From NCBI GenBank assembly GCA_964449575.1, contig CAYUYZ010000001.1, forward strand, positions 111,944 through 175,943: a stretch of DNA of 64,000 bases, given 5' to 3'. This stretch comes from an uncultured Stakelama sp. Lineage in GTDB: Bacteria > Pseudomonadota > Alphaproteobacteria > Sphingomonadales > Sphingomonadaceae. The position numbers and the translations under genes are program-made. Under the pieces are notes generated by a model. The model saw nothing but the letters and a program-made list of their open reading frames with translations, was not told where the DNA came from and ran no database searches. Below are positions 7,570 to 56,071 of the stretch, in pieces; within the stretch, counting starts at the first letter, position 1; each line of letters begins with the position of its first letter.

Positions 7570-8133
7570 TCATCCGCCGCTCGTGTCGCTGCCTCTCGAA
7601 GTCTCGAGAATCTGCGCTGCGAGCGGCTTCAGGATTTCAAAGGCCTCGGCCGCCGGGATCACCTGATAATTGGGCAAAGGCGTGAGATTGGGCGGGTAGG
7701 GAATGAACAATTCCTGCCCATCACCCTCCAATTTCAACGCGCTGAATTTGAGCGGCGCCGATTGCACGACGCGCGCCGTGAAATCGGGGCCAAGGCTCTC
7801 GGCCTGGGCGATCGCTGCTTCCAGCCCGTCCTTTGCCGGACCTTCGTGCAGCGCGATCGGATCACCTGCCCCGTCGCTTTCGACTTCGGCCAGCGCGCGA
7901 CCACCACCGTGCAGCAAGTTGCGCCACTGCGTGGTTTGGACGGCGTCGCTCGGCGAACCATGCGCGACCGCGTCGAGCGACAGATAATCGACCTGATACG
8001 GCGTGCCAAGCGTAAGCCCCGCATCCTCGGCAAAGCCCGTCGCGCGAAGCCGCGCCAAGTCATCGCCCCAATTGAGCGCATGCAGCTTTTCCAGCGTGCC
8101 GACCGGACCGCCAGCGGTGAAAGAAATGGTCAT
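7570..8133 (-). CDS. hypothetical protein, partner of the papain-like peptidase
   Basis: 187-aa ORF 12 nt downstream of the peptidase stop, with AAGGAG 8 nt before its ATG. I recognise no family. Confidence 0.6.
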   Translation of the reverse strand: MTISFTAGGPVGTLEKLHALNWGDDLARLRATGFAEDAGLTLGTPYQVDYLSLDAVAHGSPSDAVQTTQWRNLLHGGGRALAEVESDGAGDPIALHEGPAKDGLEAAIAQAESLGPDFTARVVQSAPLKFSALKLEGDGQELFIPYPPNLTPLPNYQVIPAAEAFEILKPLAAQILETSRGSDTSGG

Positions 8134-8145
8134 CTCGCGGGCTCC

Positions 8146-8844
8146 TTACTGCTTCTTCGTGTAATAGGTGTGCGTCCAGCTGCCACCGCCGTGATAGCTC
8201 GATGGATAGGAAGCATAGGCCACCGTCGACGTCCCATACCACGGATCCTGAATGACAATCGTATTGCCGTTGTTGTTGTATCCGGTGACCATCATGAAAT
8301 GCGCGCCGCCGCCATTCCACGCGACCCGCGTGCCGACCGGCTGCCCGACGTCCACCCGACCTTGGAGCACCGCAAAGCTCGCCGTTCCGCCCGCCATGCT
8401 GTCAAAGGAGCGCGCGGCCTGCAACGCCTGATCGAGATAGCCATATTGGTTGCATCCGCTGGGATTACTGCAACAGGTCGTCTTTGACTGACATGCGTTG
8501 GCGATTCCGCACTGCGTATAGGTGCCATTGCCCCAATAGAAATTGCCGACCGAAGCGCCATTCGCGGCCCAGCACCAGTTCGATTGGGTCTGCTGCTGCA
8601 TGAACGACGCCAGATTGGTCGACTTCAGGAACAACGGCCAGGACAAATTCGGGCTCGACTGGCAGCCGACGGGATAGAGGCCAACCATCACGGCGCCATA
8701 TTGCAGACTGGACTGATAAGTGAACCCGCCAGCATTGGCGGCGTCAGCAAGCGCTGCCATTTGACTCTGGCTGACGTTCTGCTGAATCGCGCCGAAGCTT
8801 ACGGGACAGCCATTAAATCCATAATTCATCTGATAATAGGGCAC
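8146..8844 (-). CDS. papain-like cysteine peptidase (Peptidase_C39_2 / C70-like fold)
   Basis: 232-aa Cys-rich ORF. Putative catalytic residues are Cys in QSNWCWAANGASV, His in GGGAHFMMVTGY, and IQDPWYG. There is no signal peptide, and G+C is visibly lower than in the neighbours. Confidence 0.7.
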   Translation of the reverse strand: MPYYQMNYGFNGCPVSFGAIQQNVSQSQMAALADAANAGGFTYQSSLQYGAVMVGLYPVGCQSSPNLSWPLFLKSTNLASFMQQQTQSNWCWAANGASVGNFYWGNGTYTQCGIANACQSKTTCCSNPSGCNQYGYLDQALQAARSFDSMAGGTASFAVLQGRVDVGQPVGTRVAWNGGGAHFMMVTGYNNNGNTIVIQDPWYGTSTVAYASYPSSYHGGGSWTHTYYTKKQ

Positions 8845-9257
8845 CGTAAAGTCCTCCCCCAGCGGCTCGTTCGATCAATGTCGATTCGTTCATTATTGGA
8901 CAAGATGCAGAATTGATTCAATTTCTGTGGGAGTCAACCCCATAGGGTAATTCATTTGCAGTAACAGGAATGTAATTTTCACGATACTAATGCTGTAACG
9001 GAGTAGCCTCCACGTTAAAGCAGTCATATTGTCGCATTGCAGCGAAAAGTCCGTTCCGGACAACGGCGTGATGCGGTCCGCTAGGGTTGGCGCGGACAGC
9101 CAACCGAATGGCGATCTTTCAGTTCGCGCGCTTGACTCGCTTCGGTTGCGCCCTTTAACCGCGCAGCCAACCGAGCCGCTGCGCTCCTCATTCCGTCTGC
9201 GGGTTGCGTGCTGTCGAAGGATGACGCGACCCCCTCGGCAGGGCAAAAGGTATCATC

Positions 9258-13667: not shown

Positions 13668-14600
13668 TCAGATGTCGAACTTGCCGCGCGGATTGCTTTT
13701 GTCGCGGCCGGGCCAGTTCTGGACGAATTCGACCAGGGCATCATCGCCCACCGGCAGATCGACCATCAAGGTCACCAGCTGATCGCCGCGCACCCCGGTC
13801 TTGCCATGGAACCCGCGCCCTTTGAGCCGCAGCACCTTGCCCGAGCTCGATCCGGCCGGGATCGTCAGCATCACCGCGCCCGACACCGTCGGCACGCGCA
13901 CGCTCGCGCCGAGCACGGCTTCGCTCAGGCTGACCGGCAGGTCGAGCCGGACATCATCGCCGTCGCGCGTGAAGAAGCGGTGCGGGTGAATGTCGATGGT
14001 GACGATCGCGTCGCCGGGGCCGCCGGGGCCGGGATCGCCCTTGCCCGACAGCCGCATCTGCGTGCCGGTCTCGACACCCGCAGGCAGCTTCAGGTCGATC
14101 GTCTTGCCATCGGCGAGCGTGATGCGCTGCGGATTGAGGCAGGCGGCGTCCGCGAACGGCACCGCCAGGCGATACGGGCGGTTGGCGCCCTTGGGCTGCG
14201 GCCCGCGCCGCCCGAAACCACCCGAGAAGCCGCCGCCAGCCTTGCGCCCGCCGAACAGTCCTTCGAAGATATCGCTGAAATCGCCGCTGTCGCCGCCTGC
14301 ATCAAAGCTGCCCGGCCCCGGCGAAAAGCCGCTGTTGTTCGGCGTCGGCCCCTGACGAAAGCCGAAGCCCGCCGGATTGCCATCGCCGTCGATCTCGCCG
14401 CGATCGAACCGCGCGCGCTTGTCCTTGTCGGACAGCAGATCATAGGCATTGGTGACGCGCGAAAACCGTTCCGTCGCCTTCGGATTATCCTTGTTGCGGT
14501 CGGGGTGCAGTTCCTTGGCGAGCTTGCGATACGCCTTTTTGATGTCGGCTTCGCTCGCGCCGCGCGCCACGCCCAGAATTTGATACGGATCGGCCATCAT
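13668..14600 (-). CDS. DnaJ-domain protein, CbpA-like (J domain plus C-terminal substrate domains, no zinc finger)
   Basis: The product starts [36 protein letters not shown] with a canonical HPD. It has a G/F-rich linker and a DnaJ C-terminal domain. The rest of the 531-aa ORF upstream is a shadow extension. Confidence 0.85.
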
Positions 14601-23425: not shown

Positions 23426-24172
23426 TTAGCGGCGGAACAGGCCTTTGAGCCAGCTCGGCACACCCGATGATTTTTTCGCATCGGCATCGTCATCGCTGCT
23501 CGAATCCACCTGACGGCGGATGGCTCTGATCCGCGCTGATGCATCGTCGGCGGAGATGCTGCGGTAATCGAGCGGCTCGGTTGGGCGTGGTTCGCGGATG
23601 TCGTCGGCGACATCGTCGGGGTCGACCGGAAGCTGGTCGTGGAAATCGTCCGCATTGTCATAGCTTGCCACCTCGCGCCCGGGGAGCGTGAGCCGTTGCA
23701 GATCGGGGTGAAGTTTGACCCGGGCATTGGTCATCGACTGCTGGCGCTCGAGCAGCAGGTCGATATCGCCCAGCCTGCCGTCTTCGATCGCTTCGGCAAA
23801 TTCGGAGTCGGGCTCATGTCCCGCCGCCTGCAAGAAATCATAAGCGATTTCGGCGCGGGGGTAGCCCGATGTGTTGAAGCGTTCGGCGATGTAGCGCAGC
23901 ATCGGCGCGACGGCATAAGGGTCATCGCCCATCTTGGCGCCGTCGGTTTCATAGTCATAGGCGGTGGGCTCGCCGCGCCAGAAGATCAGCATCGCGGTGG
24001 CTTTGTCGCAGCTCGGCTGGCTGACGATCCAGAACAGGCCGTTGAGCCCGTCATCCCAATTATGCGTGAACGCATAGCGATGCCAGTCATCGGGCGACCG
24101 ACTTTGGAGGAATTGAAGTTCCTGCGCGCGAAAACGCGCTTCGGCCTGCTCGAACTGATCGACTTGCTGCAT
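23426..24172 (-). CDS. hypothetical protein (DUF4274-like N-terminal region, acidic C-terminus)
   Basis: 248-aa ORF with good codon bias. The family call is from memory only. Confidence 0.5.
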   Translation of the reverse strand: MQQVDQFEQAEARFRAQELQFLQSRSPDDWHRYAFTHNWDDGLNGLFWIVSQPSCDKATAMLIFWRGEPTAYDYETDGAKMGDDPYAVAPMLRYIAERFNTSGYPRAEIAYDFLQAAGHEPDSEFAEAIEDGRLGDIDLLLERQQSMTNARVKLHPDLQRLTLPGREVASYDNADDFHDQLPVDPDDVADDIREPRPTEPLDYRSISADDASARIRAIRRQVDSSSDDDADAKKSSGVPSWLKGLFRR

Positions 24173-24368
24173 GGTCGCTTCGATTCCGGTCTGGTGACGA
24201 CGACAAATGTTAGGGGGAGCGTAGCCGAAGAGGTTTAAGGCATGTTGAATGCGTCGATGCCGGGCGGTTTGGGGTGAGGGGGCGGGTTAGCGCGGGACGC
24301 CTTCGGGTTTTTAGGACCCGCTGTCGGTTGGTTTCGGGCGACGTCCGGACACCTTGTGCGTCGCCTAG

Positions 24369-24404
24369 GGCCTGTTTCTCGACTTCGCTCGAAACGAACG
24401 GGGG
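24369..24404. repeat. solo half-copy of palindromic repeat family 2
   Basis: GGCCTGTTTCTCGACTTCGCTCGAAACGAACGGGG, with no partner arm upstream. Confidence 0.7.
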
Positions 24405-24859
24405 GTGGAGGATCCGCGGGTCAGCGCAGAGGACACGCCAAGGCGCGGGCGCGTGGATACGCGCTCGCGGGGAGACGGGGGGGGACAATCGACCGGCGCG
24501 TCCTGCCACGGGCATCCGGGGCTTGACGACTTTGGGTAGTTCAATCTGCAAGCGTCAAGGCTTGGCAAGTCGACGATGAAGGTGCACGCCCCGGCTCCGA
24601 CACCGGTCAAAGTGGCATCCGCATCGGCGTTGAGGGAAACCCCGCCACCGCTGCTTCGCGTGCATTTAGCCTAGTCTCCTTCACCGCCCAGTTGCGGAAA
24701 ATCCGTCTTCTATCCACGGATGGCTCCGCGCCGGTCGATTGATCGGTCGGGGTTTAGCCCTGCCGATCGCAGCCATCATTCCGCTTACGTACCGGCCGGA
24801 TACGGTTGGAATGACGGGCAGACTTATAACCCAAATGGTTGTAAATGTCAAGCGAAGAT

Positions 24860-24867
24860 GTTGCTGT
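24860..24867. repeat. target-site duplication (left copy) GTTGCTGT
   Basis: An identical 8-mer directly abuts the outer ends of both terminal inverted repeats; the other copy is at 32153-32160. Confidence 0.85.
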
Positions 24868-24911
24868 GGTGGTGACGCAGTTTGAATTCTGGGGTTAGGG
24901 AAACTCAACAC
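24868..24911. repeat. terminal inverted repeat (transposase-proximal end)
   Basis: GGTGGTGACGCAGTTTGAATTCTGGGGTTAGGGAAACTCAACAC. Confidence 0.9.
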
Positions 24912-24939
24912 TGGCCTTGTATCGCGCCGGGAGCGCCTC

Positions 24940-26106
24940 TCAGCGCGGTCCACGATAGCCGCCCTGATTCCTATAGGACCCGAGGCACATTTTGCAGATA
25001 TAGTGCCGATCAGGTTCGAGTTCCACCGCAGCGGCCATCGCCTCGCCAAATGAGTGATGTCCCTTCCAACTGCCGTGTTTGCCAGTGCTTCGATCGGCCT
25101 CGTCCCGCCGCTTGCTGTGATGGCAATCAGACGTGTGGATGTTTGCCCGATATTGGGTCGGGTTATGATAGACCCAATGGGAAGGCGCATTTTCATTTGC
25201 GGGCACGGGTGCCCCTGCATCGTCATTAGCTGCCTGCTGTCGCAGACGTTCCTTCACGAACGCATTCGTCCGATCGACCAGCTCAGAGACTTCCCAAATG
25301 TGATCTGTCAGCCCCGCCGCCATCGCTGGGGGCATACGAAGTTTGCTGTGGATACGACAAAAGTTGGTGTACATTGCCCAGAGAGCGAGATGTCGTTTGG
25401 CGTTCAGCAGCTTTTTCGAGAACGCGTTAGTCCTTCGGGTAAAGCGCTTGATGTCCATGCGAACATTGAGATTTACTCGTTCAATGTAAGACGTGTGAAT
25501 CTCTCCGAATAGCGGGCTTCCGATGATGGGCACACGATCCGCCCCAACGTACCGCTCTCGGCCCAGCTTCTTGCCATTTTTCCCGAACTTTTCGTATTTT
25601 TTGATAAACATACCGAACTCGGCATCGGTCCCAAATGCAACCGCTGCCGCTTCTTTGTAGGCGGGAAGGCCGTCGGTAATGATGGTTGGCCGAACCGCGA
25701 AGCCACCTGCCGGCGCTCGCCGAAGTTTGCGCGCAATCGATTTGAAAAAGTCGGTCGCGTCATACACTTCGCGAGTGGCGGGCAGAAAATCGACAATCAT
25801 CTTGGATTCGGCATCGACAGCTAGATATACCCAGACGGTGCCAAGCCCGGATTTCGGCTGACCAGTTCTCCGGTCAACACGATCCCGCGTCCCCACGAAA
25901 GTGTGAAACTCGTCCGCCTGTATCCAGCGGCACTCCAAATCTCTGAGCTCCTCGAAATAGGCGATCGCCATGTCGCCGGCATCCTCGAACAGCTTCATCA
26001 CCGTGTTGAAACTGTGCTGGTGCTTGCGCTCAACAGAGCGGAGGGACGCCCCTTCAACGAGGTCGTGGAGTATCATCTTCTGTCGAGAAGCGTCCAGTCG
26101 GTTCAC
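24940..26106 (-). CDS. IS1 family transposase, single-ORF type with extra Cys/His-rich C-terminal region
   Basis: 388 aa. It has an N-terminal HTH and IQADEFHTFVG, VWVYLAVDAESKMIVDF, IITDGLPAYKEA, TSYIERVNLNVRMDIKRFTRRTNAFSKK, which parallel the IS1 InsAB' DDE region. Confidence 0.8.
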   Translation of the reverse strand: MNRLDASRQKMILHDLVEGASLRSVERKHQHSFNTVMKLFEDAGDMAIAYFEELRDLECRWIQADEFHTFVGTRDRVDRRTGQPKSGLGTVWVYLAVDAESKMIVDFLPATREVYDATDFFKSIARKLRRAPAGGFAVRPTIITDGLPAYKEAAAVAFGTDAEFGMFIKKYEKFGKNGKKLGRERYVGADRVPIIGSPLFGEIHTSYIERVNLNVRMDIKRFTRRTNAFSKKLLNAKRHLALWAMYTNFCRIHSKLRMPPAMAAGLTDHIWEVSELVDRTNAFVKERLRQQAANDDAGAPVPANENAPSHWVYHNPTQYRANIHTSDCHHSKRRDEADRSTGKHGSWKGHHSFGEAMAAAVELEPDRHYICKMCLGSYRNQGGYRGPR

Positions 26107-26214
26107 CTGATTTGTTCTCCTTTCGTTTTTTGTGCTTCACAATCTCAGTTTCGGCGCTATACCGGGTCAACGAATCGGCACCCGATGCCGTGACCCATAG
26201 AGGGCCAGAGCAAA

Positions 26215-26415
26215 ATGGCAAGTTTTGATTTTGTGCTGATTGGCAGTGCTGTGCCGCAAAGGATCGAAGTGCCTGCCGACAACCTGACCAGTCTGGCGGC
26301 CTACATCGCGGGCGACCGGTTCATCACTGGCGAGCTTGCGCCCGATGAGTGGGGCGAAATCCGGCGTGTTTTGATTCCGACCAACCGGATACAAATGATT
26401 TTGGAGGGCGAGTAA
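26215..26415 (+). CDS. small hypothetical protein (first cargo gene)
   Basis: 66 aa. Its stop overlaps the next ATG (TAATG). There is a weak GAGGG upstream and no recognisable family. Confidence 0.4.
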   Translation: MASFDFVLIGSAVPQRIEVPADNLTSLAAYIAGDRFITGELAPDEWGEIRRVLIPTNRIQMILEGE

Positions 26416-26984
26416 TGAAGACTAGATTTGTTGAGGGAGTAGGCAACGTCGGTTTGAGCTACTTCACGCCGGCGGAAGTCGCCGCGATGACCGGGTTGGG
26501 TGCTGATTTGCAGCGGGTCTGGCGTCGCCGCGACCAACTGGCCGCGCCTGCGGAGGGCCAGATTGGTATCGACGCCGAAGAAGTGGCGGCGGTGGCAGTC
26601 CGTCATGCACTTACCACCTTTGGATTTTCTCCGACCGACACACTGTCGATCAGCCGTGAAGCAGCTTCCCAAGTTCTGTTCTATGCGCTCCTTTCGGACA
26701 CAGGGGCCGCTGACATCCGGGGGCCTCTCAAACGAATTGCAGAAATTGCCGGACAGTTTGAACAGGACGAGCGAATCGCGATGGCGATTTCCGGCATCAC
26801 CCAACCGATCACGCACTTGTGGAGCGCGGGACCGCCGGCGGTGGAATTTGCCAATGATGCCGCCGCCATGCTCTCGGAAGAGCGTTACCCCGTGATGCTC
26901 GTGATCGATTTAGCCTTGATGGGGCATAAGCTCGTCAGGGCCAGCACGAAGCCGCTCTTCCTCATTGATGTCACGAGCTTTTAG
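26415..26984 (+). CDS. hypothetical protein with putative N-terminal MerR/excisionase-like HTH
   Basis: 189 aa. The ATG is preceded by GGAGGG. FTPAEVAAMTGLGADLQRVWRRR resembles a short HTH. The start of the ORF-track entry was trimmed to this ATG. Confidence 0.5.
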   Translation: MKTRFVEGVGNVGLSYFTPAEVAAMTGLGADLQRVWRRRDQLAAPAEGQIGIDAEEVAAVAVRHALTTFGFSPTDTLSISREAASQVLFYALLSDTGAADIRGPLKRIAEIAGQFEQDERIAMAISGITQPITHLWSAGPPAVEFANDAAAMLSEERYPVMLVIDLALMGHKLVRASTKPLFLIDVTSF

Positions 26985-27071
26985 TGGTTGTTTCGATGTG
27001 GATACCGTACTTGGGCGCAGCGGCATGTCAGACCTCGCTCGGGCATCAACACAAGAGAAAGGGGGACGAGC

Positions 27072-29165
27072 GTGTCGGCAATTTTTGACCTAACGCAAAA
27101 TCCGTTCGCAATCTTGGGTGTGAGTCCGAGGTCCGGCACCACCGAAATCGCGGATGCCAAAGCCGATCGGCTGTTCGACAGCGAATATGACGAAGCGGCT
27201 TTGGAAGTCGCGCATTCCGAACTGATCGTGGAGAGAAAGCGGTTGTTTCACGAGGTGTCGTGGCTTGCCGATTTGGCTCCCAACCGAGCGCGCGCGATTG
27301 TTGCGGAGCTTCCAAAGGTGGACTCTGCATGCGCAGCCAATGTCGTGCCCACCGAGGCTCAGCTTTCTCGCGTTAATGTTGCTGCTGATCTGCTTATGCG
27401 CTTCCCGCATGCGAGGGATTTGGCCCAAGAGTTGTTGGACGGGCACAACCAGATCGATTGGCGTTCTGTTCGCCAAACCATCGACGAAACCCGGGCTTTA
27501 TCGGGATTCGGTCTCACGAAGGATGACGCTTGGAAGAGGGCTCAGTCCGACTTGATTGACCGACATGCCGAGGCGTTGCTTGCCACCGTCACCATGACCG
27601 AAGATGGACCAGAGCTGCTTGCTTCGATGCTCGCGGCGTCACCGTCGGCAAAAATCCCTACCAATGGCCTGTTGGAGCGAACTGTTACGCAGTATGATCG
27701 CTGGTCAGTCCCACGGCTTGAACAGCTCTCTGAACAAATTGATGCGTCTTTGGCAGCGCTTAAGGCGGGTACCGACACAGAGGTTAATCTGTCGAGGTTG
27801 GAAAACCTCTTAGCCGATTGGGATCGGATCAGCCAACCGGTTCAGCTCAGGGATCAAGCAAAGGGTCTCGATGAGCCGCGATCGTTGCGACTCTTCAAGC
27901 ACGTGCGCGAAGTAGCGATTTGGTTCGCCAACGAACGCGATAACAACGAAGCGGCGCGCCGAATTACGGCGGCGTTCGCCGCCGCATTCTCGGAGCTTCC
28001 GACCGTGGCAGCGATGACAGCCGCCGATCTCAAGACCCTAAATGAAAACATTACCCACGCCGAGGCTTTGAAGGCGCTTCACCCCCTTGAAGTCGCGGCG
28101 GACGGGGCGATCGAAAAATTGTCCGATGCGGCAAAGCAGATTCGTGCTGGTGGCTTTGCGGCCGGAAAGCACGGCGTGATTGGGAGTCTATTCGCTGCAT
28201 TTGACGGCGTCCGCGAAAAGGTTGGCATGTTGCCCGACGCCAACACGCCTTGGCTGCTCGTCAGGTCGGTCGCGCTGGCACTACACAATGATCTCAAGGC
28301 ATCAGACGAGGCAAGAATTCTCATCGAGGCGATCATCGGAACGGCCCCCGATCAGGCGCGGGGTATGCTCGATGAAGATCTTCGTACCCTCCGATCTGTA
28401 ACATTACAGGATTCGTTCAACCGCGCGCTGGAAAGAAACGACTGGCGGGCTGCGCGCAACATGGTTGCGGCCATGATCGAAGCGGACCCAGAGCAAGCCG
28501 GTGAACTTCTGAAAGTTCAATCCTCTCTCGACGGTAAGTTGAGTAGTAGGAATTGGAAAAGGATCGGGTGGGGCATCGCTGCTGGGTTCGTATTTCTGAT
28601 CGTCATCAACGATAACGCAAGCAAGCCTACGCCCAGCGCCGCACCCGCATATAGCTATGATCCGTCAACCGAGCCTGCTTCTGGTTCGGATACGAGTGAG
28701 GCTCCGGTCACACCTCCGGACGCTGCGCCGATGGATACGACAGAGCAAGAACCACCGATGTTTAATATAGAAGGTTTGACTCTTCCGCAGCTAAGATTCT
28801 GCAAGTTCGAAAACGCACGTTTAGATATTCTTAAAGACCTCGTAACGACCGCCATGGCAAGCGAGTACAACGCGAAAGTCGATAACTACAATAACCGCTG
28901 CGGGCGATTTCGTTATAAAGAAAGCGACATGACTCAAATCGACGCAGAGATTGCTGCAAAAGGGCCGCAAATACGGGCTGAAGCCACAAAACTCCTTTCG
29001 ACTTGGCGAGCGTTAAGCATGCCTGAATGGGCCGCCGACCCTGTCGTCCCGAGCACAGCTTCTCCACAAACACAGCGGCCTTCTCCGCTGGATGATCTGG
29101 GTCTTGGAACCCAATCAACGCCCGAGGATCAAACTCCAGCCGAAGCGAAACCCGATGACAACTGA
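27072..29165 (+). CDS. single-pass membrane protein with HPD-less J-like N-terminus
   Basis: The GTG start is preceded by AAAGGGGGA. NPFAILGVSPRSGTTEIADAKADRLF resembles J-domain helices I-II, but no HPD follows. It has a long helical middle, a TM segment WGIAAGFVFLIVI, a P/S/T-rich linker and a ~130-aa C-terminal domain. Confidence 0.6.
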   Translation: MSAIFDLTQNPFAILGVSPRSGTTEIADAKADRLFDSEYDEAALEVAHSELIVERKRLFHEVSWLADLAPNRARAIVAELPKVDSACAANVVPTEAQLSRVNVAADLLMRFPHARDLAQELLDGHNQIDWRSVRQTIDETRALSGFGLTKDDAWKRAQSDLIDRHAEALLATVTMTEDGPELLASMLAASPSAKIPTNGLLERTVTQYDRWSVPRLEQLSEQIDASLAALKAGTDTEVNLSRLENLLADWDRISQPVQLRDQAKGLDEPRSLRLFKHVREVAIWFANERDNNEAARRITAAFAAAFSELPTVAAMTAADLKTLNENITHAEALKALHPLEVAADGAIEKLSDAAKQIRAGGFAAGKHGVIGSLFAAFDGVREKVGMLPDANTPWLLVRSVALALHNDLKASDEARILIEAIIGTAPDQARGMLDEDLRTLRSVTLQDSFNRALERNDWRAARNMVAAMIEADPEQAGELLKVQSSLDGKLSSRNWKRIGWGIAAGFVFLIVINDNASKPTPSAAPAYSYDPSTEPASGSDTSEAPVTPPDAAPMDTTEQEPPMFNIEGLTLPQLRFCKFENARLDILKDLVTTAMASEYNAKVDNYNNRCGRFRYKESDMTQIDAEIAAKGPQIRAEATKLLSTWRALSMPEWAADPVVPSTASPQTQRPSPLDDLGLGTQSTPEDQTPAEAKPDDN

Positions 29166-29535
29166 AAACGCTGCCATAGACCCTACTTTGGCACTGACCC
29201 AGGTCGCCGTGGAAATGTGGAAATTGCTGCGGGCGTTCGAGCGGACCTTTGTCGATCTGCCGGCGGAAAAGCTCCCTAATCGAGTGGCTCAGCATCGCTA
29301 CTCTACGTCACGATTGAATGCCCTGTTAGATGGCGTGGGAATAAAGCTGCTAACATTCGATGGGGAGCAATTCACCGCCCACTTGCCCGTCAGCCCGGCG
29401 AATGCTGACGACATTGAAGACGCAGATAGTGCAGTCATTGAATCAACAATCGAGCCGACGATCATTGGCCACAACGTGGTACTTCACATCGGAAAAGTGA
29501 TGCTTGCGGGGAATAAAAATGTATCTCGGGATTGA
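29155..29535 (+). CDS. GrpE-like putative nucleotide exchange factor (short)
   Basis: 126 aa, overlapping the upstream gene by 11 nt. LNALLDGVGIKLLTFDGEQFTAHLPVS...VIESTIEPTIIGHNVVLHIGKVML parallels the GrpE C-terminal pattern (GV..I...G..FDP..H.A ... V..GY......LR.A.V.V). Confidence 0.5.
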   Translation: MTTENAAIDPTLALTQVAVEMWKLLRAFERTFVDLPAEKLPNRVAQHRYSTSRLNALLDGVGIKLLTFDGEQFTAHLPVSPANADDIEDADSAVIESTIEPTIIGHNVVLHIGKVMLAGNKNVSRD

Positions 29536-32041
29536 CCTTGGCACCTCAAACTCGGCGGTCGTCGGCAATGACGATGGTGTTTTGCGCCTTTTCAAAACCG
29601 CCGATGGCCGGGACGTATTGCCGAGTGCCATTTATATCGACCGGCGTGGAAACCGATTTGTCGGCAAGAAGGCGCAGGATCAGGCTTCGCTCGCACCGGA
29701 AAACGTCGCGCAAGGCTTTAAGCGCCTGATGGGCACCTCGACCCCTTTCAGTTTTGCGGGCAGCGATTTTCAAATGAGTCCCGAGGAGGCCAGCGCGGAA
29801 GTTCTGAGGACTTTGGTGTCACAAGTTAAAACCGAGGCTGGAGATGTGATCATTCAAGGCACGGTCATCACCGTGCCCGCTGCATTCAATCAAATGCAGT
29901 CTGAAGCGACCATTCGATCTGCGGCAGCGGCAGGCTTAACTGCTGTTGGCTTGCTGCAAGAACCTGTGGCTGCCGCATTGTCGTCCTTGGAGGTCGCGAC
30001 CAACAAGGATGGAATTTTCCTCGTTTACGATCTCGGCGGCGGAACGTTCGACGTGGCACTGGTTCAAAGTACCCGTGGAGCGGTGACGGTCTTGGCACAC
30101 GAGGGTGTAAATATGCTCGGCGGTCGCGATTTTGATCGCAGTATCGTCAACAGCGTCGTTCGCCCTTGGCTCTTGGAAAATTACGATCTCCCAAACGACT
30201 TTCAAAAAGACCCGCGATTTCGTCGTCTTGTTCGGCTGGCTGGCATGAAGGCTGAAGAGGCCAAGATCGACCTTTCGACGAGAGACACAGTGCAAATCTT
30301 CGTTGCTGAGGAGGAGGCCCGCGTCGAAGATCGGTCGGGGCAGGAGATATTCATTGATGTGCCCTTGCATCGCAGCCGTCTCGAAGAATTGACACGAGAC
30401 GGTGTCGATACGTCGATCGAACTGTGCAGAAAGATTCTATCAGACAATGGTTTGTCGCACGACGATGTTGACCGACTCGTATTCATCGGAGGTCCTTCAA
30501 AGATGCCCTCGATCCGTGATCGAGTGCCCAAAGAGCTTGGCATCGCCCCTGATCTTCGCACTGATCCGATGACCGCAGTTGCGCGCGGAGCCGCGATCTT
30601 TGCGGAAAGCCGAAATTGGGGTGAGGCCGGGAAAACGGTACGAAAGGCTACGCGCGGATCGAAGAAGACTGCCAGCACGATCGGTGTTTCATATGATTTT
30701 GAAGCCCGGACGACGTCTGGAGAGGCTCGGATCAGAATCACGGCAACGGGCGAGACGGCCGGTTTCAGAGTTTCTTTGACGAATGATGACATGTGGGATT
30801 CAGGGCAAATCGATCTACAAAAATCACAAACTCTTGTAGTTCCGCTATCTCGAAAGGGTGCAAATCGCGTCCAGATTACTGTTACCGACAATCAGGGTGC
30901 GCCGGTAACAGCAGCATCTGCCGAATTAGTCATTACCAAGATCGATGCTAGTGCTGCGGGCATTCCTGCGACGCAAACGATCGCAGTAAAATTGCGGACC
31001 GGAGATGGGCCCTTTGCACGCAATGAGCTGAGTCCGCTCTTTGAGAAAGGGACAATCCTACCCGCCTCCGGCGTGAAGCGGTTTCGGGCATCGGAAACAC
31101 TCAGAGGAGATGTCGATGGTCATCTAGACGTAGAGATTTTCGAAAAGACCCACGGCGTCCCCGAACCTGAGTTGAACCTTTTCATCGGATGTTACCGCAT
31201 CACGGATGAAATGCTTGAGCAAGATGCCGTAGTGCGGAAGGGTGACGAAGTTATCGTTCATTGGAATGTGGACGACAACATGCTCCTTAGCTGCGCGATC
31301 GAGCTGCCTGCGCTCGGCCTAAAACTCGATGACCATCGCTTTTATGTCCCATCGATCGGCCACAAAAATTATGATGGTGAGACTGGGCGTTTGATTGCTT
31401 CCAAAGCACTTGCAGATGCTCAGCAGGACTTGAACGTCGTGGGCGAGGCTTTGGAAGGCAAAGCCGGCAATGAAATCGCCGCTCTGCGCAGACGCATCGA
31501 TCGCCAACTCAACGAACTCGCCAAAGGGGACGATGCCGACGTGTCTCGATCGGTAGAGGAGGAGGCACGTCATGTCCGACAGGAAGTTTCACGGCTCAAG
31601 CATGACCCTGCATTTCGAAAACAGGTTCTAGCCGCCGACGTTGATCGCGCCACGGACATATTCGCCGAGCTGGTAGACGACGCCGACGATGAGACAATCG
31701 CACGTCTGAAGCAACTTGTAGCCACAGCGGAGCGGAGTTTGGCCGCAGATGATCTGGAGACCGCCGAGCGGGCTGTCGAAGACATCAGGATGCTCGTCGG
31801 AGCCGCCGTCCGTCGTCAGCCGGCCTACATGGTCGCCGCGTTTGAGCGCGCCGCAAGTGAGGGTTACCTCGCGATTGATCAGGCTCTTCACGATCGAATC
31901 GTTCTTGAGGGAGAAAAGGCACTAGAAAGAGGTGATCTTACGGCCTTGAATGCTGCTACTTTCGCGCTTTATCAAAATCGCGCAGAGGTCGATGGACCGA
32001 ACGGCGATCTTGCAAACCTTGCTGGCTTGATGAGCGTTTAG
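29519..32041 (+). CDS. divergent Hsp70 family ATPase (840 aa) with long non-canonical C-terminal half
   Basis: The product starts MYLGIDLGTSNSAV. It also has VYDLGGGTFDVALV, FIGGPSKMPSIRDRV and AVARGAAIFAE, the Hsp70 phosphate-1, phosphate-2 and adenosine motifs. It overlaps the GrpE-like gene by 17 nt. Confidence 0.85.
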   Translation: MYLGIDLGTSNSAVVGNDDGVLRLFKTADGRDVLPSAIYIDRRGNRFVGKKAQDQASLAPENVAQGFKRLMGTSTPFSFAGSDFQMSPEEASAEVLRTLVSQVKTEAGDVIIQGTVITVPAAFNQMQSEATIRSAAAAGLTAVGLLQEPVAAALSSLEVATNKDGIFLVYDLGGGTFDVALVQSTRGAVTVLAHEGVNMLGGRDFDRSIVNSVVRPWLLENYDLPNDFQKDPRFRRLVRLAGMKAEEAKIDLSTRDTVQIFVAEEEARVEDRSGQEIFIDVPLHRSRLEELTRDGVDTSIELCRKILSDNGLSHDDVDRLVFIGGPSKMPSIRDRVPKELGIAPDLRTDPMTAVARGAAIFAESRNWGEAGKTVRKATRGSKKTASTIGVSYDFEARTTSGEARIRITATGETAGFRVSLTNDDMWDSGQIDLQKSQTLVVPLSRKGANRVQITVTDNQGAPVTAASAELVITKIDASAAGIPATQTIAVKLRTGDGPFARNELSPLFEKGTILPASGVKRFRASETLRGDVDGHLDVEIFEKTHGVPEPELNLFIGCYRITDEMLEQDAVVRKGDEVIVHWNVDDNMLLSCAIELPALGLKLDDHRFYVPSIGHKNYDGETGRLIASKALADAQQDLNVVGEALEGKAGNEIAALRRRIDRQLNELAKGDDADVSRSVEEEARHVRQEVSRLKHDPAFRKQVLAADVDRATDIFAELVDDADDETIARLKQLVATAERSLAADDLETAERAVEDIRMLVGAAVRRQPAYMVAAFERAASEGYLAIDQALHDRIVLEGEKALERGDLTALNAATFALYQNRAEVDGPNGDLANLAGLMSV

Positions 32042-32109
32042 TTGGCTGCCTCGGGATACGCGCTGAACGGAGCCATCGCGGCCTGCTATCGCCGCCCCAC
32101 TTTCGCGGA

Positions 32110-32152
32110 GTGTTAGTTTCCCTAACCCCAGGATTCAAACTGCGTCACCACC
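32110..32152. repeat. terminal inverted repeat (cargo-proximal end)
   Basis: The reverse complement reads GGTGGTGACGCAGTTTGAATCCTGGGGTTAGGGAAACTAACAC. Confidence 0.9.
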
Positions 32153-32160
32153 GTTGCTGT
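32153..32160. repeat. target-site duplication (right copy) GTTGCTGT
   Basis: Identical to 24860-24867. Confidence 0.85.
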
Positions 32161-32272
32161 GGGCGGTGGGCTCGTGACCCTGAAAAGGGGGAATGGCGGG
32201 AACTGGGAGAAAGCCGACGGGCAGCTTTCGGCTCACGCTCCTACGAAGCGGACGCTAGTTTTGCTGGAAAGT

Positions 32273-32788
32273 TCAATTGCGATTGCCGCCCATCAGACCA
32301 ATCGAAAGCGATCTTCGCCAGCCCGCCGCTGCCACGATGCGGCCCGCCTCAAATGTAAAGGTAACAGGGAAGGCAACCCTTGCGGTCGCGTCAATGAACT
32401 CAACCTCGACCTTCTGTACCGCGCACGCATTTTGGATCGGTGTCGGTATGCTGTCCCATCCGTAGTAACGGAACGAAGAAGGATTCATGTGCCTCGTAAG
32501 GGCTCGCAATCCGTCGACGCCTGAACCCATCGGAAGGCCGACATCGCCCCCACCTGAGGAGAACGTTGCGGAAGGCGAAACCAACTGAGCCAAGCGCGGA
32601 TCGGCCTTTGAAGAAGGCGTCGCCGCCCATCGCACCGCGTCCACCGCTCGCTTGCTGAGGATAGCCTGCAATTCCCCGATCGTTTGGACTTTGTCTAAGC
32701 CGCACCCAGCAGGCGTAGCTGCCGAAGCTGCCAGCGGTGCGAAAAACGAGGTTGCGATCAATATGGTCGCTTGAACAGAGAACCCCAT
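32273..32788 (-). CDS. hypothetical secreted protein
   Basis: 171 aa with a signal peptide ending LAASAATPAG. It lies outside the transposon but also has lower G+C. Confidence 0.55.
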   Translation of the reverse strand: MGFSVQATILIATSFFAPLAASAATPAGCGLDKVQTIGELQAILSKRAVDAVRWAATPSSKADPRLAQLVSPSATFSSGGGDVGLPMGSGVDGLRALTRHMNPSSFRYYGWDSIPTPIQNACAVQKVEVEFIDATARVAFPVTFTFEAGRIVAAAGWRRSLSIGLMGGNRN

Positions 32789-32976
32789 AAAATGGATCTT
32801 CCTTTGAAGCTCAATCGCTGCAACCCGTCGGTCAGTACGGGCATGGCATGTTGTGGCCTGGATGAACGACTGCCCGCAATCAGGAATCGCGGTGTTGCCT
32901 TGGAATGGCTATTTCTGGCCGTTAGCCGTCAAAGCCCTACCCATCGCCCCTACCTCTACGACGCGATCCGACGCGC

Positions 32977-33513
32977 CTATTTCTCCTCCACCGGCGGCAA
33001 TTCCATCCGGTCGGCGACGGCGGCGGCGGTCGGGGCGGCGGGGGCGCGGCAGCCTTTGCTGAGGCCAAGGCCTTTCAGATAGGCGCGGCGGACCGAGCCG
33101 GCATAGGCGGCGGCTTCGGCGCGGCGCTGGGCCTTGTCGGCGCCGGTGATGACGCGGACGAGGCCAAGGCCGGGGATCAGCGTGTTGACGGCCGCCTTGG
33201 TCGCGGCCGAGGCGACATAGGCGCCTTCGCCCTTTTTCTTGCCTTCAACATCGACATCTTCGCCGAGCGCAGCAGTCAGTGTGGCGATCTGCTCGGCGAT
33301 TTGCGCGCAGGTGCGCGTGCCCTCGGTGCTGTACGGCGCGGATACCGCGAGCAGCAGGGATTCGGGAATCTTGTCCTTCTGGAGCCGCGCATCGCGCAAC
33401 GGCTGCGTTGCCGCGCGGCGAACGCTGGTGTCCTGTTGCTGCGCGGCGGCTGCCCCGACCAAAAGTCCGATCAGCACGGTTGCGCTGGCGATTGCCTTGA
33501 GTTGCATCATCAT
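32977..33513 (-). CDS. hypothetical secreted protein
   Basis: The start is taken at MMMQLKAIASATVLIGLLVGAAAAQ, preceded by GGGAGA. 178 aa. The upstream part of the 282-aa ORF is unsupported. Confidence 0.55.
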   Translation of the reverse strand: MMMQLKAIASATVLIGLLVGAAAAQQQDTSVRRAATQPLRDARLQKDKIPESLLLAVSAPYSTEGTRTCAQIAEQIATLTAALGEDVDVEGKKKGEGAYVASAATKAAVNTLIPGLGLVRVITGADKAQRRAEAAAYAGSVRRAYLKGLGLSKGCRAPAAPTAAAVADRMELPPVEEK

Positions 33514-52777: not shown

Positions 52778-53221
52778 ATGATCAAGGCATTGTTACGGTC
52801 GATCTTGGCAATTGCAGCGCTATCGGCCCCCGCGGCAGCTACGGAGTTCGAGGCGCAGCCGCCCAGCCCTTGCTTGAAATCGCTTCAGCGCCAATCAAAC
52901 GCACGGACACTCACACCGGCAACTGCATTTCTGTTTGATAACAACGTCCTTATAATCGTTCCAAAGGTCTGCGGTAAAGGCAGTACGATGTTGCTCTCAA
53001 CGTCCGATAATAAACGGGTTGCTTTGGCAAATTCGATACGCCGAAAACTCCTTCCTTCGTCGTCATCATCACAGTCACCGATAGGCCTTGATGCCATAGT
53101 TCGTGGAAGGGTAGACTTCTCGAATAGAGGTTTTACATTGTTACACGGCGAGGTTGTTCAATTTCGCGTCCTTAGCGTCAATCAAAGCCAGAAGGCATAC
53201 ACCATTGCTGGCGGCCACTAA
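52778..53221 (+). CDS. hypothetical secreted protein
   Basis: 147 aa from MIKALLRSILAIAALSAPAAA. Low G+C, no recognised family. Confidence 0.45.
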   Translation: MIKALLRSILAIAALSAPAAATEFEAQPPSPCLKSLQRQSNARTLTPATAFLFDNNVLIIVPKVCGKGSTMLLSTSDNKRVALANSIRRKLLPSSSSSQSPIGLDAIVRGRVDFSNRGFTLLHGEVVQFRVLSVNQSQKAYTIAGGH

Positions 53222-53328
53222 CGCGAGTAGCATAAGAAATTCCATTTGATACTACATCCGATACGTGAATGGCGGAACCGGTGGTCCCCCGCTTGCCCCC
53301 ATCGCCCGCGCCGCTTAGGACCACGCCC

Positions 53329-53994
53329 ATGCTCGCGCGCCTGGCCTCGATCCGGAACTGGATCTTCGATCTCGACAACACGCTCTACCCTGCCCGCGCC
53401 AATATCGCCGGGCAGATGGACGCGCGGATCACGCAGTATATCGCCGACACGCTCGGGCTCGAGTGGGCCGATGCGCGCACGCTCCAGAAGAAATTCTTCC
53501 ACGAAAAGGGCACGACGCTCGCAGGGCTGATCGCGCATCACGGCGTCGATCCGCATCATTATCTTGAGTTTGTGCATGATCTCGAAATGGACGTGCTCGA
53601 ACATGATGCGCCGCTGGTCGCCGCGATCGCGCAACTGCCGGGGCGCAAACTCATCTTCACCAACGCCGATGCGCCCTATGCGACGCGGGTGCTCGCGCGG
53701 CTCGGCCTCTCCGACAGTTTCGAGGCGATCCACGACATCCACGCGACCAATTACGTCCCCAAGCCCGAGCCGCAAGTTTATCGCGGGCTGTGCGCAGCCT
53801 ATGATCTCGACCCCGCGCAGAGCTTGTTCGTCGAGGATATGGCGCGCAATCTCGCGCCCGCCAAGGCGATCGGCATGACGACGGTGTGGGTCAATAACGG
53901 CTCCGAACAACCGCCGGGCGGCGTGCCCGATTATATCGATTTCACGATTTCTGATCTCAGCCACTGGTTGCATGACATAATGGAGGCAGCATGA
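53329..53994 (+). CDS. pyrimidine 5'-nucleotidase (HAD superfamily)
   Basis: [10 protein letters not shown] is HAD motif I, and FTNA and VEDMARNL are later motifs. The start could be 53269. Confidence 0.8.
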
Positions 53995-54818
53995 CCGAAG
54001 CCCTGCAAACGACGATCGACGCGGCATGGGAAGCGCGTGACAGCATCGGCTTTGCGACCACCGGTGCGGTGCGCGACGCGGTCGATGCGGCGCTGGCGAT
54101 GCTCGATGCCGGCACCGCGCGCGTGGCCGAGCCCGACAGCCATGGCGGTTGGCGGGTCAATCAGTGGCTGAAGAAAGCCGTGCTGCTGTCGTTCCGGCTG
54201 AACGATAACATGCTGATCGCGGGCGGGCCGGGCGACGGGCCGTGGTTTGACAAGGTGCCGTCGAAATTCGCCGGTTGGGGCGACGCCGAGTTCCGCGACG
54301 CGGGCTTTCGTGCGGTACCGGGCAGCATCGTGCGGCGCGGCGCCTATATCGCCAAGGGCGCGGTGCTGATGCCGAGCTTCGTCAACATCGGCGCGCATGT
54401 CGGCGAAGGCACGATGGTCGACACCTGGGCGACGGTGGGGAGCTGCGCGCAGATCGGCCGCAATGTCCATCTGTCGGGCGGCGCGGGGATTGGCGGCGTG
54501 CTCGAGCCATTACAGGCGGGCCCCGTGGTGATCGAGGACGGCGCCTTCATCGGCGCGCGGGCCGAAGTGGCCGAAGGCGTGCGCGTTGGCGAAGGCGCGG
54601 TGCTGTCGATGGGCGTGTATCTCGGCGCCTCAACCAAGATCATCGACCGCGCGACGGGCGAGGTCCACCGCGGCTTCGTGCCGCCCTATTCGGTGGTGGT
54701 ACCGGGGACGATCGGCGGCGGGGATGGCGTGCCTGCGCTCTATTGCGCGGTGATCGTGAAGCAGGTCGACGCGCAGACGCGGTCGAAGACGAGCATCAAC
54801 GAGTTGCTGCGGGATTAG
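53991..54818 (+). CDS. dapD: 2,3,4,5-tetrahydropyridine-2,6-dicarboxylate N-succinyltransferase
   Basis: 275 aa with hexapeptide repeats and the typical DapD N-terminus (IDAAWEARD). Its ATG overlaps the upstream stop. Confidence 0.95.
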
Positions 54819-55010
54819 GGAGGGTAACCCAACCCTCATCACTTTCACGCTCCCGATCGAACGAAAGCTATACTCTTTTCGGACTTCATTTGCAGCGATC
54901 TGGAAAGCCCTCCGGGACGAATTGCGCTACCGGCATCTCGACGAGATTTTACTGTTGTAGAGAAACGAACAACTGCGGTACAAACCAATAAATCGTAAAA
55001 TTTCGATTCT

Positions 55011-55490
55011 GTGACTATTCACGAGTGGGGGTCTCGCCTGCCCTTGATATCAAAGCCGTTCATTCTGTGTAGCGCCGTTTCGGTAGTAATTTTGCTCGCA
55101 TCAGCGGAAATCGCTCGTGCGCAAGAACCGCCACGACTCTCGCCGCGGGACGCTGAAGATTATGATCGAAATATGAGCTTAATTGCCAGTCTCCAGAAGG
55201 GGATTGTGAGACACAACGCCTCAATTGAGCGGCTCATCAATCAGGTGATCGCGCTCAAGAAAGCTCTTTCGACGCAAAATCGTGTATTTGCGCCAGAATA
55301 TTTCGATCCTCCTTTATTTCCGCCGAGCGCAGAATTGAGCAGGACGATTGAGGGTCAACGCCAAGTGATCGCGATGTTGAGCACAACCCTGGAAAGCCGT
55401 CTTGCGATAGAGCGGCGGCTCAAACAACGACGCGATCAGCTTCGTCAAGAATTACGGCGGGCGGACCGCGACGCGAGGGCAAGCAAATGA
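55011..55490 (+). CDS. hypothetical secreted coiled-coil protein
   Basis: 159 aa with a GTG start, a signal/TM segment and a helical Arg/Gln-rich C-terminus. It lies in a low-G+C islet. Confidence 0.45.
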   Translation: MTIHEWGSRLPLISKPFILCSAVSVVILLASAEIARAQEPPRLSPRDAEDYDRNMSLIASLQKGIVRHNASIERLINQVIALKKALSTQNRVFAPEYFDPPLFPPSAELSRTIEGQRQVIAMLSTTLESRLAIERRLKQRRDQLRQELRRADRDARASK

Positions 55491-55876
55491 CCAACAATCA
55501 ATATGACGCGGATGAAGCACTCCTAACCGAGGCAAGACTTGCGGTGGCTGATAGACCGCCCGTCGTGTCGAAGTTGGAAGTCCCATCGTCCATCCCTCGC
55601 TGGTGGACGACCCAGAACGCAATGACCATGTCGTCAATCGTGCTCGCTTTCGGGGTAATTGTGCTGGGTTTGGCGGCTTGGTTGGTTAAGAGCGGTCACT
55701 CGGCGACGTCTGTTCTTCGCATTTTTGGCACGGTACTGGTGATAGTTATGGTGACATTCCTCGTGGTGGCCGGCTATGACGACAAGCAAATCGCGGCGCC
55801 GCTTGGACTGCTCGGTACTATCGTCGGGTATCTGCTCGGTCGGGATGCTGGACGCGCTCAGGATTCGAAGGAATGA
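55487..55876 (+). CDS. hypothetical membrane protein (3 TM)
   Basis: 129 aa. Its ATG overlaps the upstream stop (ATGA). Low-G+C islet. Confidence 0.5.
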   Translation: MTNNQYDADEALLTEARLAVADRPPVVSKLEVPSSIPRWWTTQNAMTMSSIVLAFGVIVLGLAAWLVKSGHSATSVLRIFGTVLVIVMVTFLVVAGYDDKQIAAPLGLLGTIVGYLLGRDAGRAQDSKE

Positions 55877-56071
55877 CGAACCCCTAATCTGCAATAGCAG
55901 TCTCTCCTGAAGGGGATCCTCGGGGGATTTTTGTTTGGTGAGCGATTGGTGCTCTGCGCAGCTTGCACATTGAATCGGGCCCACTGCTAACCACCCTTCC
56001 CCCCACCCCCATTCTCGACAACCCGCCCTCAACCGCCTATCGCCCACCCCTACAGAACAAGGGGAGCCCCA

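Follow-up and report, generated by a model that had tools for sequence, protein, structure and literature searches.

The 64,000-nucleotide stretch of DNA analysed here (the window), from an uncultured Stakelama sp. (contig CAYUYZ010000001.1, positions 111,944 to 175,943), carries a 7,285-bp IS1-like transposon (window positions 24868-32152) whose passenger genes include a probable dedicated Hsp70 system. This system is a triad of consecutive genes, designated g3, g4 and g5, which encode a predicted membrane-bound adaptor, a miniature GrpE-fold protein and a long Hsp70, respectively. The triad is widespread and, as an earlier reading of the window from its sequence alone (the sequence-only reading) had supposed, it is not an already named system: no name for it is present in PADLOC, Pfam, NCBIfam, the RefSeq annotation or the searched literature. 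The anatomy of the element as described below and in Table 1 is very probably correct.

The transposon holds five plus-strand genes, g1 to g5 (26215-32041), with the order and the overlaps that the sequence-only reading had given them. g1 and g2 share a TAATG (26413-26417), g3 and g4 overlap by 11 nt (29155-29165) and g4 and g5 by 17 nt (29519-29535), and a gap of 87 nt separates g2 from g3. The two 38-bp terminal inverted repeats (TIRs) are 97% complementary, a pairing whose expected number by chance is 0 (100 shuffles), and the same 8-bp sequence, GTTGCTGT, abuts both ends of the element, so that the TIRs and the short target-site duplication (TSD) of an IS1-type element are both present. 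The G+C content is 0.53-0.57 inside the element and ~0.65 outside, in agreement with the earlier placement of the genes in a transposon of lower G+C. This contrast, the repeats and the conserved synteny discussed below are far beyond chance. An identical element, with unchanged gene calls, is found on two public contigs (L001 and L002). Like IS1-family insertion sequences with passengers, the element has a DDE transposase with IS1-like signals, TIRs that start with GGTG and an 8-bp target duplication. Unlike them, it has a transposase that scores too low for the NCBIfam IS1 model (E 2e-10; 40.9 bits, where 100 are required), and it has ~5.8 kb of passenger genes aboard; the other transposase matches are to NCBIfam IS6 (E 1.6e-7) and Pfam DDE_Tnp_IS1 (E 4e-4). 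The insertion site seems to be intergenic, and the reconstructed empty site has no convincing open reading frame (ORF) spanning the insertion point. A pattern scan for promoters and terminators gives nothing exceeding the shuffled expectation, no Rfam family lies within 23500-33500, and the transposase region has no match when searched against plasmids.

The conserved functional unit is g3-g4-g5 rather than all five genes. The "five-gene operon" of the sequence-only reading is overstated as a unit, because only g3, g4 and g5 are kept together elsewhere. A single functional operon in which g1 and g2 would form its own regulator pair is suggested by the common strand, the TAATG overlap of g1 and g2, the short spacing between g2 and g3, a weak MerR-like helix-turn-helix (HTH) signal in g2, and the lack of a separate promoter-like site upstream of g3 in the pattern scan. 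However, no other triad locus has g1 or g2, and the two occur solely with this transposase. Other loci have different genes upstream, on the opposite strand. In another genome (L033:8655-10761, on a 3.79-Mb contig), the stretch from the left TIR through the transposase and g1 to g2 matches window 24868-26975 with 94% identity and the triad is absent; g2 is followed there by unrelated DNA and an IS21, and the right TIR is not present. Since L033 has transposase-g1-g2 without the triad, g1 and g2 belong to the transposon backbone, and the five-gene operon is improbable. No match to g1 is found in Pfam, NCBIfam, PADLOC or PHROGs. For g2, in which a check on the HTH expected among the five proteins was made, the only match is a weak one, with CarH over its HTH portion (E 0.003, residues 18-97). 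With all six element proteins searched against the same four databases, only the Hsp70 nucleotide-binding domain (NBD) and weak transposase and HTH signals appear.

The synteny of the triad was assessed by searching species-representative genomes with a profile of the C-terminal half of g5, chosen to avoid DnaK, which yielded 18 loci. In 14 of them, the long Hsp70 gene is immediately preceded by homologues of both g3 and g4, with the gene order kept and mostly with overlaps. Counted over genome loci, 15 or more have this order, with genes that overlap or abut. Thus, the association of the Hsp70 with the 697- and 126-residue partners, proposed from the window alone, recurs across phyla, and in total the arrangement is found at more than 20 loci in Alpha- and Gammaproteobacteria, Acidobacteria and one cyanobacterium. 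The alphaproteobacterial carriers include Paracoccaceae, Dongia, Microvirga and Sphingomicrobium, among others; beyond this class, the triad is present in an Acidobacteriaceae genome, in Gammaproteobacteria and Pseudomonadales metagenome-assembled genomes (MAGs), and in the cyanobacterium Kaiparowitsia. It is also found on metagenome contigs and on Sinorhizobium and Aminobacter plasmids, where RefSeq names the products, in g3-g4-g5 order, "hypothetical protein", "hypothetical protein" and "Hsp70 family protein". The earlier view that the set travels on mobile DNA is therefore sound, given the TIRs and TSD here and the plasmids and integrases elsewhere. Phage genomes have no homologue of the g5 C-terminal half.

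The largest protein of the triad, g5, is a member of the Hsp70 superfamily, with a match to Pfam HSP70 (PF00012) at E 4e-61 that covers residues 3 to 362 only. When g5 is aligned with E. coli DnaK and 118 full-length relatives, the positions that correspond to DnaK D8, K70, E171, D194, G196-198, T199 and D201 are invariant (D8 is gapped in one relative). The nucleotide-binding motifs read earlier from the sequence are thus upheld, and because these catalytic equivalents are invariant, the g5 ATPase should be active. The surface through which Hsp70s communicate with J domains is another matter. At the J-domain/allosteric interface, R167 is replaced by G or A in the 118 relatives, R151 by S, N170 by Q, T173 by I or V, and D481 by N; position 167 is also V, S or D in more distant relatives, and the VLLL linker is not alignable. 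The protein is 27% identical to DnaK and scores far under every named Hsp70 equivalog of NCBIfam, including DnaK (TIGR02350; 220 bits, cut-off 822) and HscA (TIGR01991; 204 bits, cut-off 709), in both cases with a match to the NBD only.

The remainder of g5 is specific to the family. Extra sequence had been placed between the ATPase domain and a segment resembling the β part of the substrate-binding domain (SBD-β), and the alignments with DnaK bear this out. The insertion comprises ~115 residues and is β-rich by sequence. For the SBD-β-like segment, family columns 128-221 align with DnaK 406-489 (hhalign E 1.3e-3, with a low probability of 18.5%), and the MAFFT register is the same. The C-terminal region matches only designed helical proteins in the PDB, and its ...LAGLM.. 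motif is common to triad Hsp70s. EEVD tails dock to TPR co-chaperones; by analogy, and speculatively, the extreme C-terminus of g5 (LAGLM, window 32009-32038) might be a docking site for the helical scaffold of g3. In addition, g5 retains the loop at DnaK 28-33 (FKTADG versus ENAEGD in DnaK) and the 285-296 region. HscA has a deletion of this latter region and HscC lacks it; neither of these two types works with an exchange factor (Mayer 2021, PMC8215388).

Other Hsp70-like proteins were considered alongside g5. An identity with CnuD, the Hsp70-like component of CoCoNuT, was rejected: CnuD has degenerate Walker motifs and McrBC/HEPN neighbours, while the catalytic residues of g5 are intact and such neighbours are lacking. 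The only PADLOC match of g5 is to PDC-M61B (E 8e-6) and spans 39 residues inside the shared ATPase motif. A sister clade of long Hsp70s, 40-45% identical, occurs in Rickettsiales and Rhodospirillaceae MAGs (L018:6283-8814, L019:8876-11191, L020:8825-11350, L022:8879-11488). These genes are accompanied by neither g3 nor g4, and a search for other co-chaperone partners showed housekeeping neighbours (RuvX, flavodoxin, epimerase, acyl-CoA dehydrogenase). Retention of R167 in this clade was considered as a contrast to the triad and discarded, as the clade also lacks DnaK R167. Finally, plasmids of Polaromonas, Vibrio, Shewanella and Aeromonas (H10-H13; Beta- and Gammaproteobacteria) carry "Hsp70 family protein" genes with 24-29% identity to the g5 C-terminal half.

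The small protein g4 had been described as GrpE-like, and structure prediction supports this. Its AlphaFold2 (AF2) model, built on a 40-sequence alignment, has a mean predicted local distance difference test score (pLDDT) of 90.5, and it consists of helices at residues 10-34 and 40-60 followed by a six-stranded β domain, which is the helical hairpin and small β domain of the GrpE fold. In a Foldseek search of the PDB, ranks 1 to 12 are all GrpE or human GrpEL1, with TM scores of 0.40-0.49; ranks 1 to 9 have probabilities of 0.89-1.00 and E-values of 4e-3 to 7e-2, and ranks 10 to 12 are weaker (E 0.4-0.5, probability 0.41-0.60). Sequence comparisons are less telling. When the family profile is searched against 177,635 PDB sequences, Geobacillus GrpE (4ani) is third at E 0.67, colinear over residues 108-191, the Hsp70-binding half, and one g4 homologue is named GrpE in UniRef. 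There is no Pfam (including GrpE, PF01025) or NCBIfam match at E<=0.1, and hhalign of the family against E. coli GrpE alone gives nothing. The model begins only ~9 residues before the first short helix, so that the long N-terminal helix of the full GrpE architecture is absent. Given the confident model and the fact that its best PDB fold matches are all GrpE, g4 as modelled is a GrpE-fold protein without the long N-terminal helix, and it is predicted to be the nucleotide exchange factor of g5.

The first protein of the triad, g3, is predicted to be bitopic. It is modelled as all-helical over residues 1 to 495, and this part is followed by a hydrophobic segment, a disordered linker rich in Pro, Ser and Asp, a folded C-terminal domain and an acidic tail. 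Its AF2 model has a mean pLDDT of 80, with values of at least 82 (mostly at least 90) over residues 1-470 apart from a dip near residue 195; the whole model finds only generic helical-repeat matches in Foldseek (TM ~0.1). The sequence-only reading had described its N-terminus as J-like without HPD. The lack of HPD stands, as the tripeptide is present in 0 of 20 aligned members (the loop is LFDSEYD in the window protein, and relatives have A(L/I)xD(G/A)), and predicted helices at residues 11-15, 23-36, 41-62 and 70-82 fit the order and lengths of J-domain helices I to IV. However, every match to a J domain is below threshold: hhalign against DnaJ residues 4-26 gives E 0.021 (probability 2%), the family against the PDB J domain 2cug gives E 0.65, and Pfam DnaJ (PF00226) matches 3 of 20 relatives, at E 0.12 or worse, and not the window protein. 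Thus, g3 has neither the HPD nor the significant profile match that mark a J domain.

The hydrophobic segment has the highest hydropathy in the protein, with a 19-mer Kyte-Doolittle mean of 1.5. The helical region is predicted to be cytoplasmic and the Cys-pair domain periplasmic, a location supported by the peptidoglycan-binding domain that is appended to the C-terminus of some g3 homologues. The Cys-pair domain comprises ~95 residues with an invariant C, N, R and C and has pLDDT of ~76-91 over residues 561-650, lower at the edges. An attempt to identify it, which the sequence-only reading had called for, did not succeed: nothing credible matches it in the PDB or Pfam. At E<=1e-3, the g3 family numbers 3,485 representative clusters, counted at 50% identity, of which 724 are found at E<=1e-30. 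It diverges faster than g5 (35% versus 55% identity in L004). The most conserved stretch of g3 is an invariant loop, KGLDEPRS, at residues 264-271 (window 27861-27884), between two long helices of the predicted cytoplasmic region; it could be a binding site. In a Pseudomonadales locus (L014), two consecutive ORFs of 319 and 369 residues, with J-like N-domains at L014:5752-5979 and L014:7299-7517, replace g3, perhaps as the result of a duplication, a split or an assembly artefact. The host has its own CbpA/DnaJ-like protein (window 13668-14600, minus strand), which contains a normal J domain with HPD, as noted earlier.

Taken together, the three proteins suggest a dedicated, membrane-tethered Hsp70 machine, co-translated as a passenger module. 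In the proposed mechanism, g3 would sit in the inner membrane, with its J-like N-terminus and a helical scaffold of ~410 residues in the cytoplasm and the Cys-pair domain toward the periplasm or cell wall, and would recruit g5 to the membrane. Since HPD is missing from g3 and the R167 equivalent from g5, any contact between them would be non-canonical. By releasing ADP from g5, g4 would set its cycle time. If g3 senses a change in the envelope, the machine could then spend ATP to remodel or sequester a target protein, and an extra AAA+ or nuclease gene would perhaps assist it in many relatives.

This design has partial counterparts among known chaperone systems. HscC of E. coli, like g5, is a non-housekeeping Hsp70 paralogue encoded beside its own membrane-anchored co-chaperone, DjlB or DjlC, and its sporadic distribution, consistent with horizontal transfer, also resembles that of the triad (PMC8215388). 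However, HscC has 550-580 residues, with NBD deletions, no insertion and no GrpE signature, and is believed to work without an exchange factor; DjlB and DjlC retain HPD, and the system is linked to Cd2+ and UV tolerance (PMC8215388). With 840 residues, a GrpE-fold partner of its own and an adaptor that lacks HPD, the g5 system is not of the HscC type. DnaK-DnaJ-GrpE divides its work into the three roles that are predicted for the triad, those of an ATPase, an exchange factor and a J-type adaptor; the catalytic residues and the GrpE fold are likewise common to both. It differs in the identity, linker and interface positions of DnaK and in the long helix of GrpE, as described above, and DnaJ, unlike g3, has HPD, a G/F region and client-binding domains, whereas g3 is predicted to be membrane-bound. 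The mitochondrial import motor PAM contains mtHsp70, Mge1/GrpE, Tim44, Pam18 and the HPD-less J-like Pam16. The resemblance is by analogy only and concerns the parts: an Hsp70, an exchange factor of the GrpE type and an HPD-less J-like protein that tethers the ATPase at a membrane. For the triad there is no sequence relationship shown, no translocon partner, and an ATPase on the cytoplasmic side.

Two predicted or known conflict systems also bear comparison. The GAP1-N2 GTPase-centred systems bring their own Hsp70, GrpE and a DnaJ-fused protein (Kaur et al. 2020, PMC7159879) and so resemble the triad as a predicted conflict system that supplies its own Hsp70 and GrpE. However, they contain GTPases, FNIII-repeat proteins and true DnaJ domains and are found mainly in Actinobacteria and Firmicutes (PMC7159879), while the triad is mainly proteobacterial, and neither the window element nor any triad locus annotated individually contains a GTPase. 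IetAS consists of the ATPase IetA and the serine protease IetS. The AAA+ gene directly after the Hsp70 in many relatives of the triad matches IetA models (E 1e-24 to 1e-31), but no IetS-like protease is annotated in the AAA-bearing loci with gene tables, and neither IetA nor IetS is in the window. PADLOC-DB 2.0.0 has no match to g1, g2, g3 or g4.

The AAA+ gene just mentioned encodes ~443 residues and starts a few bases from the Hsp70 stop codon in at least nine loci. Its product has an N-terminal half without a known family and a classical AAA module (PF00004, E ~1e-31), and the IetA match covers the AAA module only. In Sphingopyxis (L024:12585-13313), the gene after the triad instead encodes a PD-(D/E)xK nuclease (PF14281, E 7e-9; PDC-S26-like, E 2e-14), which suggests that the fourth genes are interchangeable add-on modules. 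The window copy has neither, as the right TIR follows g5 after 73 nt. The description of the window set as self-sufficient is therefore weaker than stated, and uncertain: the window copy itself does lack a fourth gene, but many relatives have one. Around the triad (Table 1), mobile-element, defence or toxin-antitoxin genes are present in 10 of 12 individually annotated distinct contexts, and an eleventh (L038) has only predicted conflict-system components. The neighbour ORFs of 12 further loci, 123 in all, were scanned together; among them are matches to the PADLOC models for type IIG restriction-modification, DruE, DrmMI, CapP, BilA, BrxP and type IV REase, and two integrases.

Table 1. Features of the transposon and its triad, with fourth genes and neighbours of triad loci elsewhere (unprefixed positions refer to the window)
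Feature	Position	Strand	Basis or remark
Left TSD copy, 8-bp octamer GTTGCTGT	24860-24867	.	identical octamer abuts both element ends
Left TIR, 38 bp, begins GGTGGTGACGCAG	24868-24905	+	97% complementary to 32115-32152
Transposase, 388 aa, IS1-family-like DDE enzyme	24940-26106	-	weak NCBIfam/Pfam matches
g1, 66 aa	26215-26415	+	no family match; goes with transposase, not triad
g2, 189 aa, possible MerR-type HTH protein	26415-26984	+	goes with transposase
g3, 697 aa, GTG start, predicted bitopic adaptor	27072-29165	+	syntenic with g4 and g5
g3 residues 5-85, J-like N-terminal domain without HPD (NPFAILGVSPR...DRLFDSEYDE...RKRLFHE)	27084-27326	+	conserved in 20/20 aligned members
g3 residues 498-512, single hydrophobic segment IGWGIAAGFVFLIVI after RNWKR, predicted span, N-terminus inside	28563-28607	+	hydropathy
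g3 residues 556-655, four-helix domain, invariant Cys pair C577/C610, predicted periplasmic	28737-29036	+	alignment and AF2
g4, 126 aa, mini-GrpE, predicted exchange factor for g5	29155-29535	+	AF2 and Foldseek
g5, 840 aa	29519-32041	+	Hsp70
g5 residues 1-365, Hsp70 NBD, all catalytic residues	29519-30613	+	Pfam HSP70 E 4e-61
g5 residues 366-479, family-specific insertion between NBD and substrate-binding domain	30614-30955	+	unaligned to DnaK (MAFFT), conserved in family
g5 residues 480-600, SBD-β-like segment	30956-31318	+	hhalign, MAFFT
g5 residues 601-840, long C-terminal region, probably helical, ends ...LAGLM..	31319-32041	+	conserved over whole length
Right TIR, 38 bp	32115-32152	-	pairs with left repeat
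Right TSD copy, 8-bp GTTGCTGT	32153-32160	.	direct repeat
AAA gene after the Hsp70	L005:11414-12742, L007:11402-12730, L009:11407-12759, L012:5096-6463, L025:12536-13867, L027:8207-9349, L038:15113-16414		
Neighbours, L004			integrase
Neighbours, L023			ParDE, two integrases
Neighbours, L024			MucR, PD-(D/E)xK nuclease, MobA, antitoxin
Neighbours, L025 and L026			four transposases, DruA, UmuDC, type IV secretion system (T4SS) coupling protein
Neighbours, L027 and L028			resolvases, Dcm-Vsr-EcoRII, Cas3-like helicase
Neighbours, L029			large DEAD/ResIII helicase
Neighbours, L036 (MOBQ plasmid)			restriction endonuclease, Fic/VbhA, RelE/ParE, methyltransferase
Neighbours, L037			IS3, integrase, AAA ATPase and helicase, RES toxin, TraA
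Neighbours, L038			fvmX2/3 conflict-system components
Neighbours, L039 (Aureimonas)			metabolic genes only

In other parts of the window, three 1-kb bins (8001-9000, 53001-54000 and 55001-56000) have a G+C content of 0.54-0.58 against the background of ~0.65 and may be further foreign inserts.

The likeliest role for the triad is in conflict or defence, as accessory DNA, although the case is circumstantial and falls just short of making this role probable. It follows from the mobile, patchy and phylum-crossing distribution; from the neighbours, which are mostly defence, toxin-antitoxin and mobile-element genes; and from the variable, effector-like fourth genes and the fast evolution of g3. A more specific form of this idea, which is possible but must be called tentative, places the triad at the centre of a new class of defence against phages or plasmids, powered by the ATPase cycle of an Hsp70 that brings its own exchange factor. 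The HPD-less bitopic J-like adaptor would respond to a signal from the periplasm or cell wall and guide the Hsp70 at the membrane to a protein of the invader or the host, which the Hsp70 would capture, unfold or pull on, and interchangeable AAA+ or nuclease modules would be add-on effectors.

Several observations weigh against such a role or against parts of the anatomy on which it is built. The J-like assignment of the g3 N-terminus is not statistically significant, which leaves it reasonable but unproven, and the membrane span is marginal by hydropathy. No recognisable effector domain is present in the window copy, and the similarity of the AAA+ proteins to IetA is confined to a generic module. 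PADLOC is without any model for g3, g4 or g5. The neighbour counts are a tally rather than a statistical enrichment against background, and the Aureimonas triad lies among metabolic genes only. The long Hsp70s of the sister clade, alone among housekeeping genes, fit a chaperone role that is not tied to conflict.

These last two observations also favour the main competing explanation, in which the triad would be a mobile module for stress tolerance or for the quality control of membrane proteins. It would hold, extract or refold envelope and membrane proteins under heat, metal or envelope stress and spread by aiding the survival of its host. Horizontally transferred heat-resistance loci with chaperones and proteases spread in a similar way. 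All three proteins are of the chaperone type, and the window copy contains no toxin or nuclease; the AAA+ partner in relatives recalls the cooperation of DnaK with ClpB, and the membrane anchoring is like that of HscC-DjlB/DjlC, with its link to Cd2+/UV tolerance (PMC8215388). However, most neighbouring genes encode integrases, toxin-antitoxin pairs, restriction enzymes or other defence functions rather than further stress proteins, and the fourth gene of one relative is a nuclease. In addition, the loss of the canonical J interface on both partners would be unexpected for a general folding machine, and g3 diverges quickly. A stress module is an unlikely explanation, albeit a serious one. That the triad serves the mobile element itself, in maintenance, addiction, transfer control or entry exclusion, rather than host defence, is quite improbable: there are plasmid copies, neighbours such as TraA, a T4SS coupling protein, MobA, integrases and toxin-antitoxin pairs, and a predicted exposed envelope domain on g3, as in entry-exclusion proteins, but the triad is also present on a simple IS-like transposon (the window) and at chromosomal sites without transfer genes, has no conserved toxin-like partner and is linked to no single type of mobile element.

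The triad thus combines a large family, a fixed gene order, its own miniature GrpE, loss of the canonical J-domain/Hsp70 contact on both sides, and carriage on mobile DNA, and the window copy is a minimal cassette, with three genes in ~5 kb. Should it prove to be a defence system, the known engines of bacterial immunity would be extended by chaperone ATPase cycles, and were the defence driven by the Hsp70 cycle as proposed, its parts list would make it the bacterial equivalent of the mitochondrial Hsp70 import motor. As a stress module, it would be a membrane-proteostasis machine capable of transfer. Either way, it offers a compact natural system in which to address how an Hsp70 may be driven without the HPD-R167 contact and what a GrpE minimally requires.

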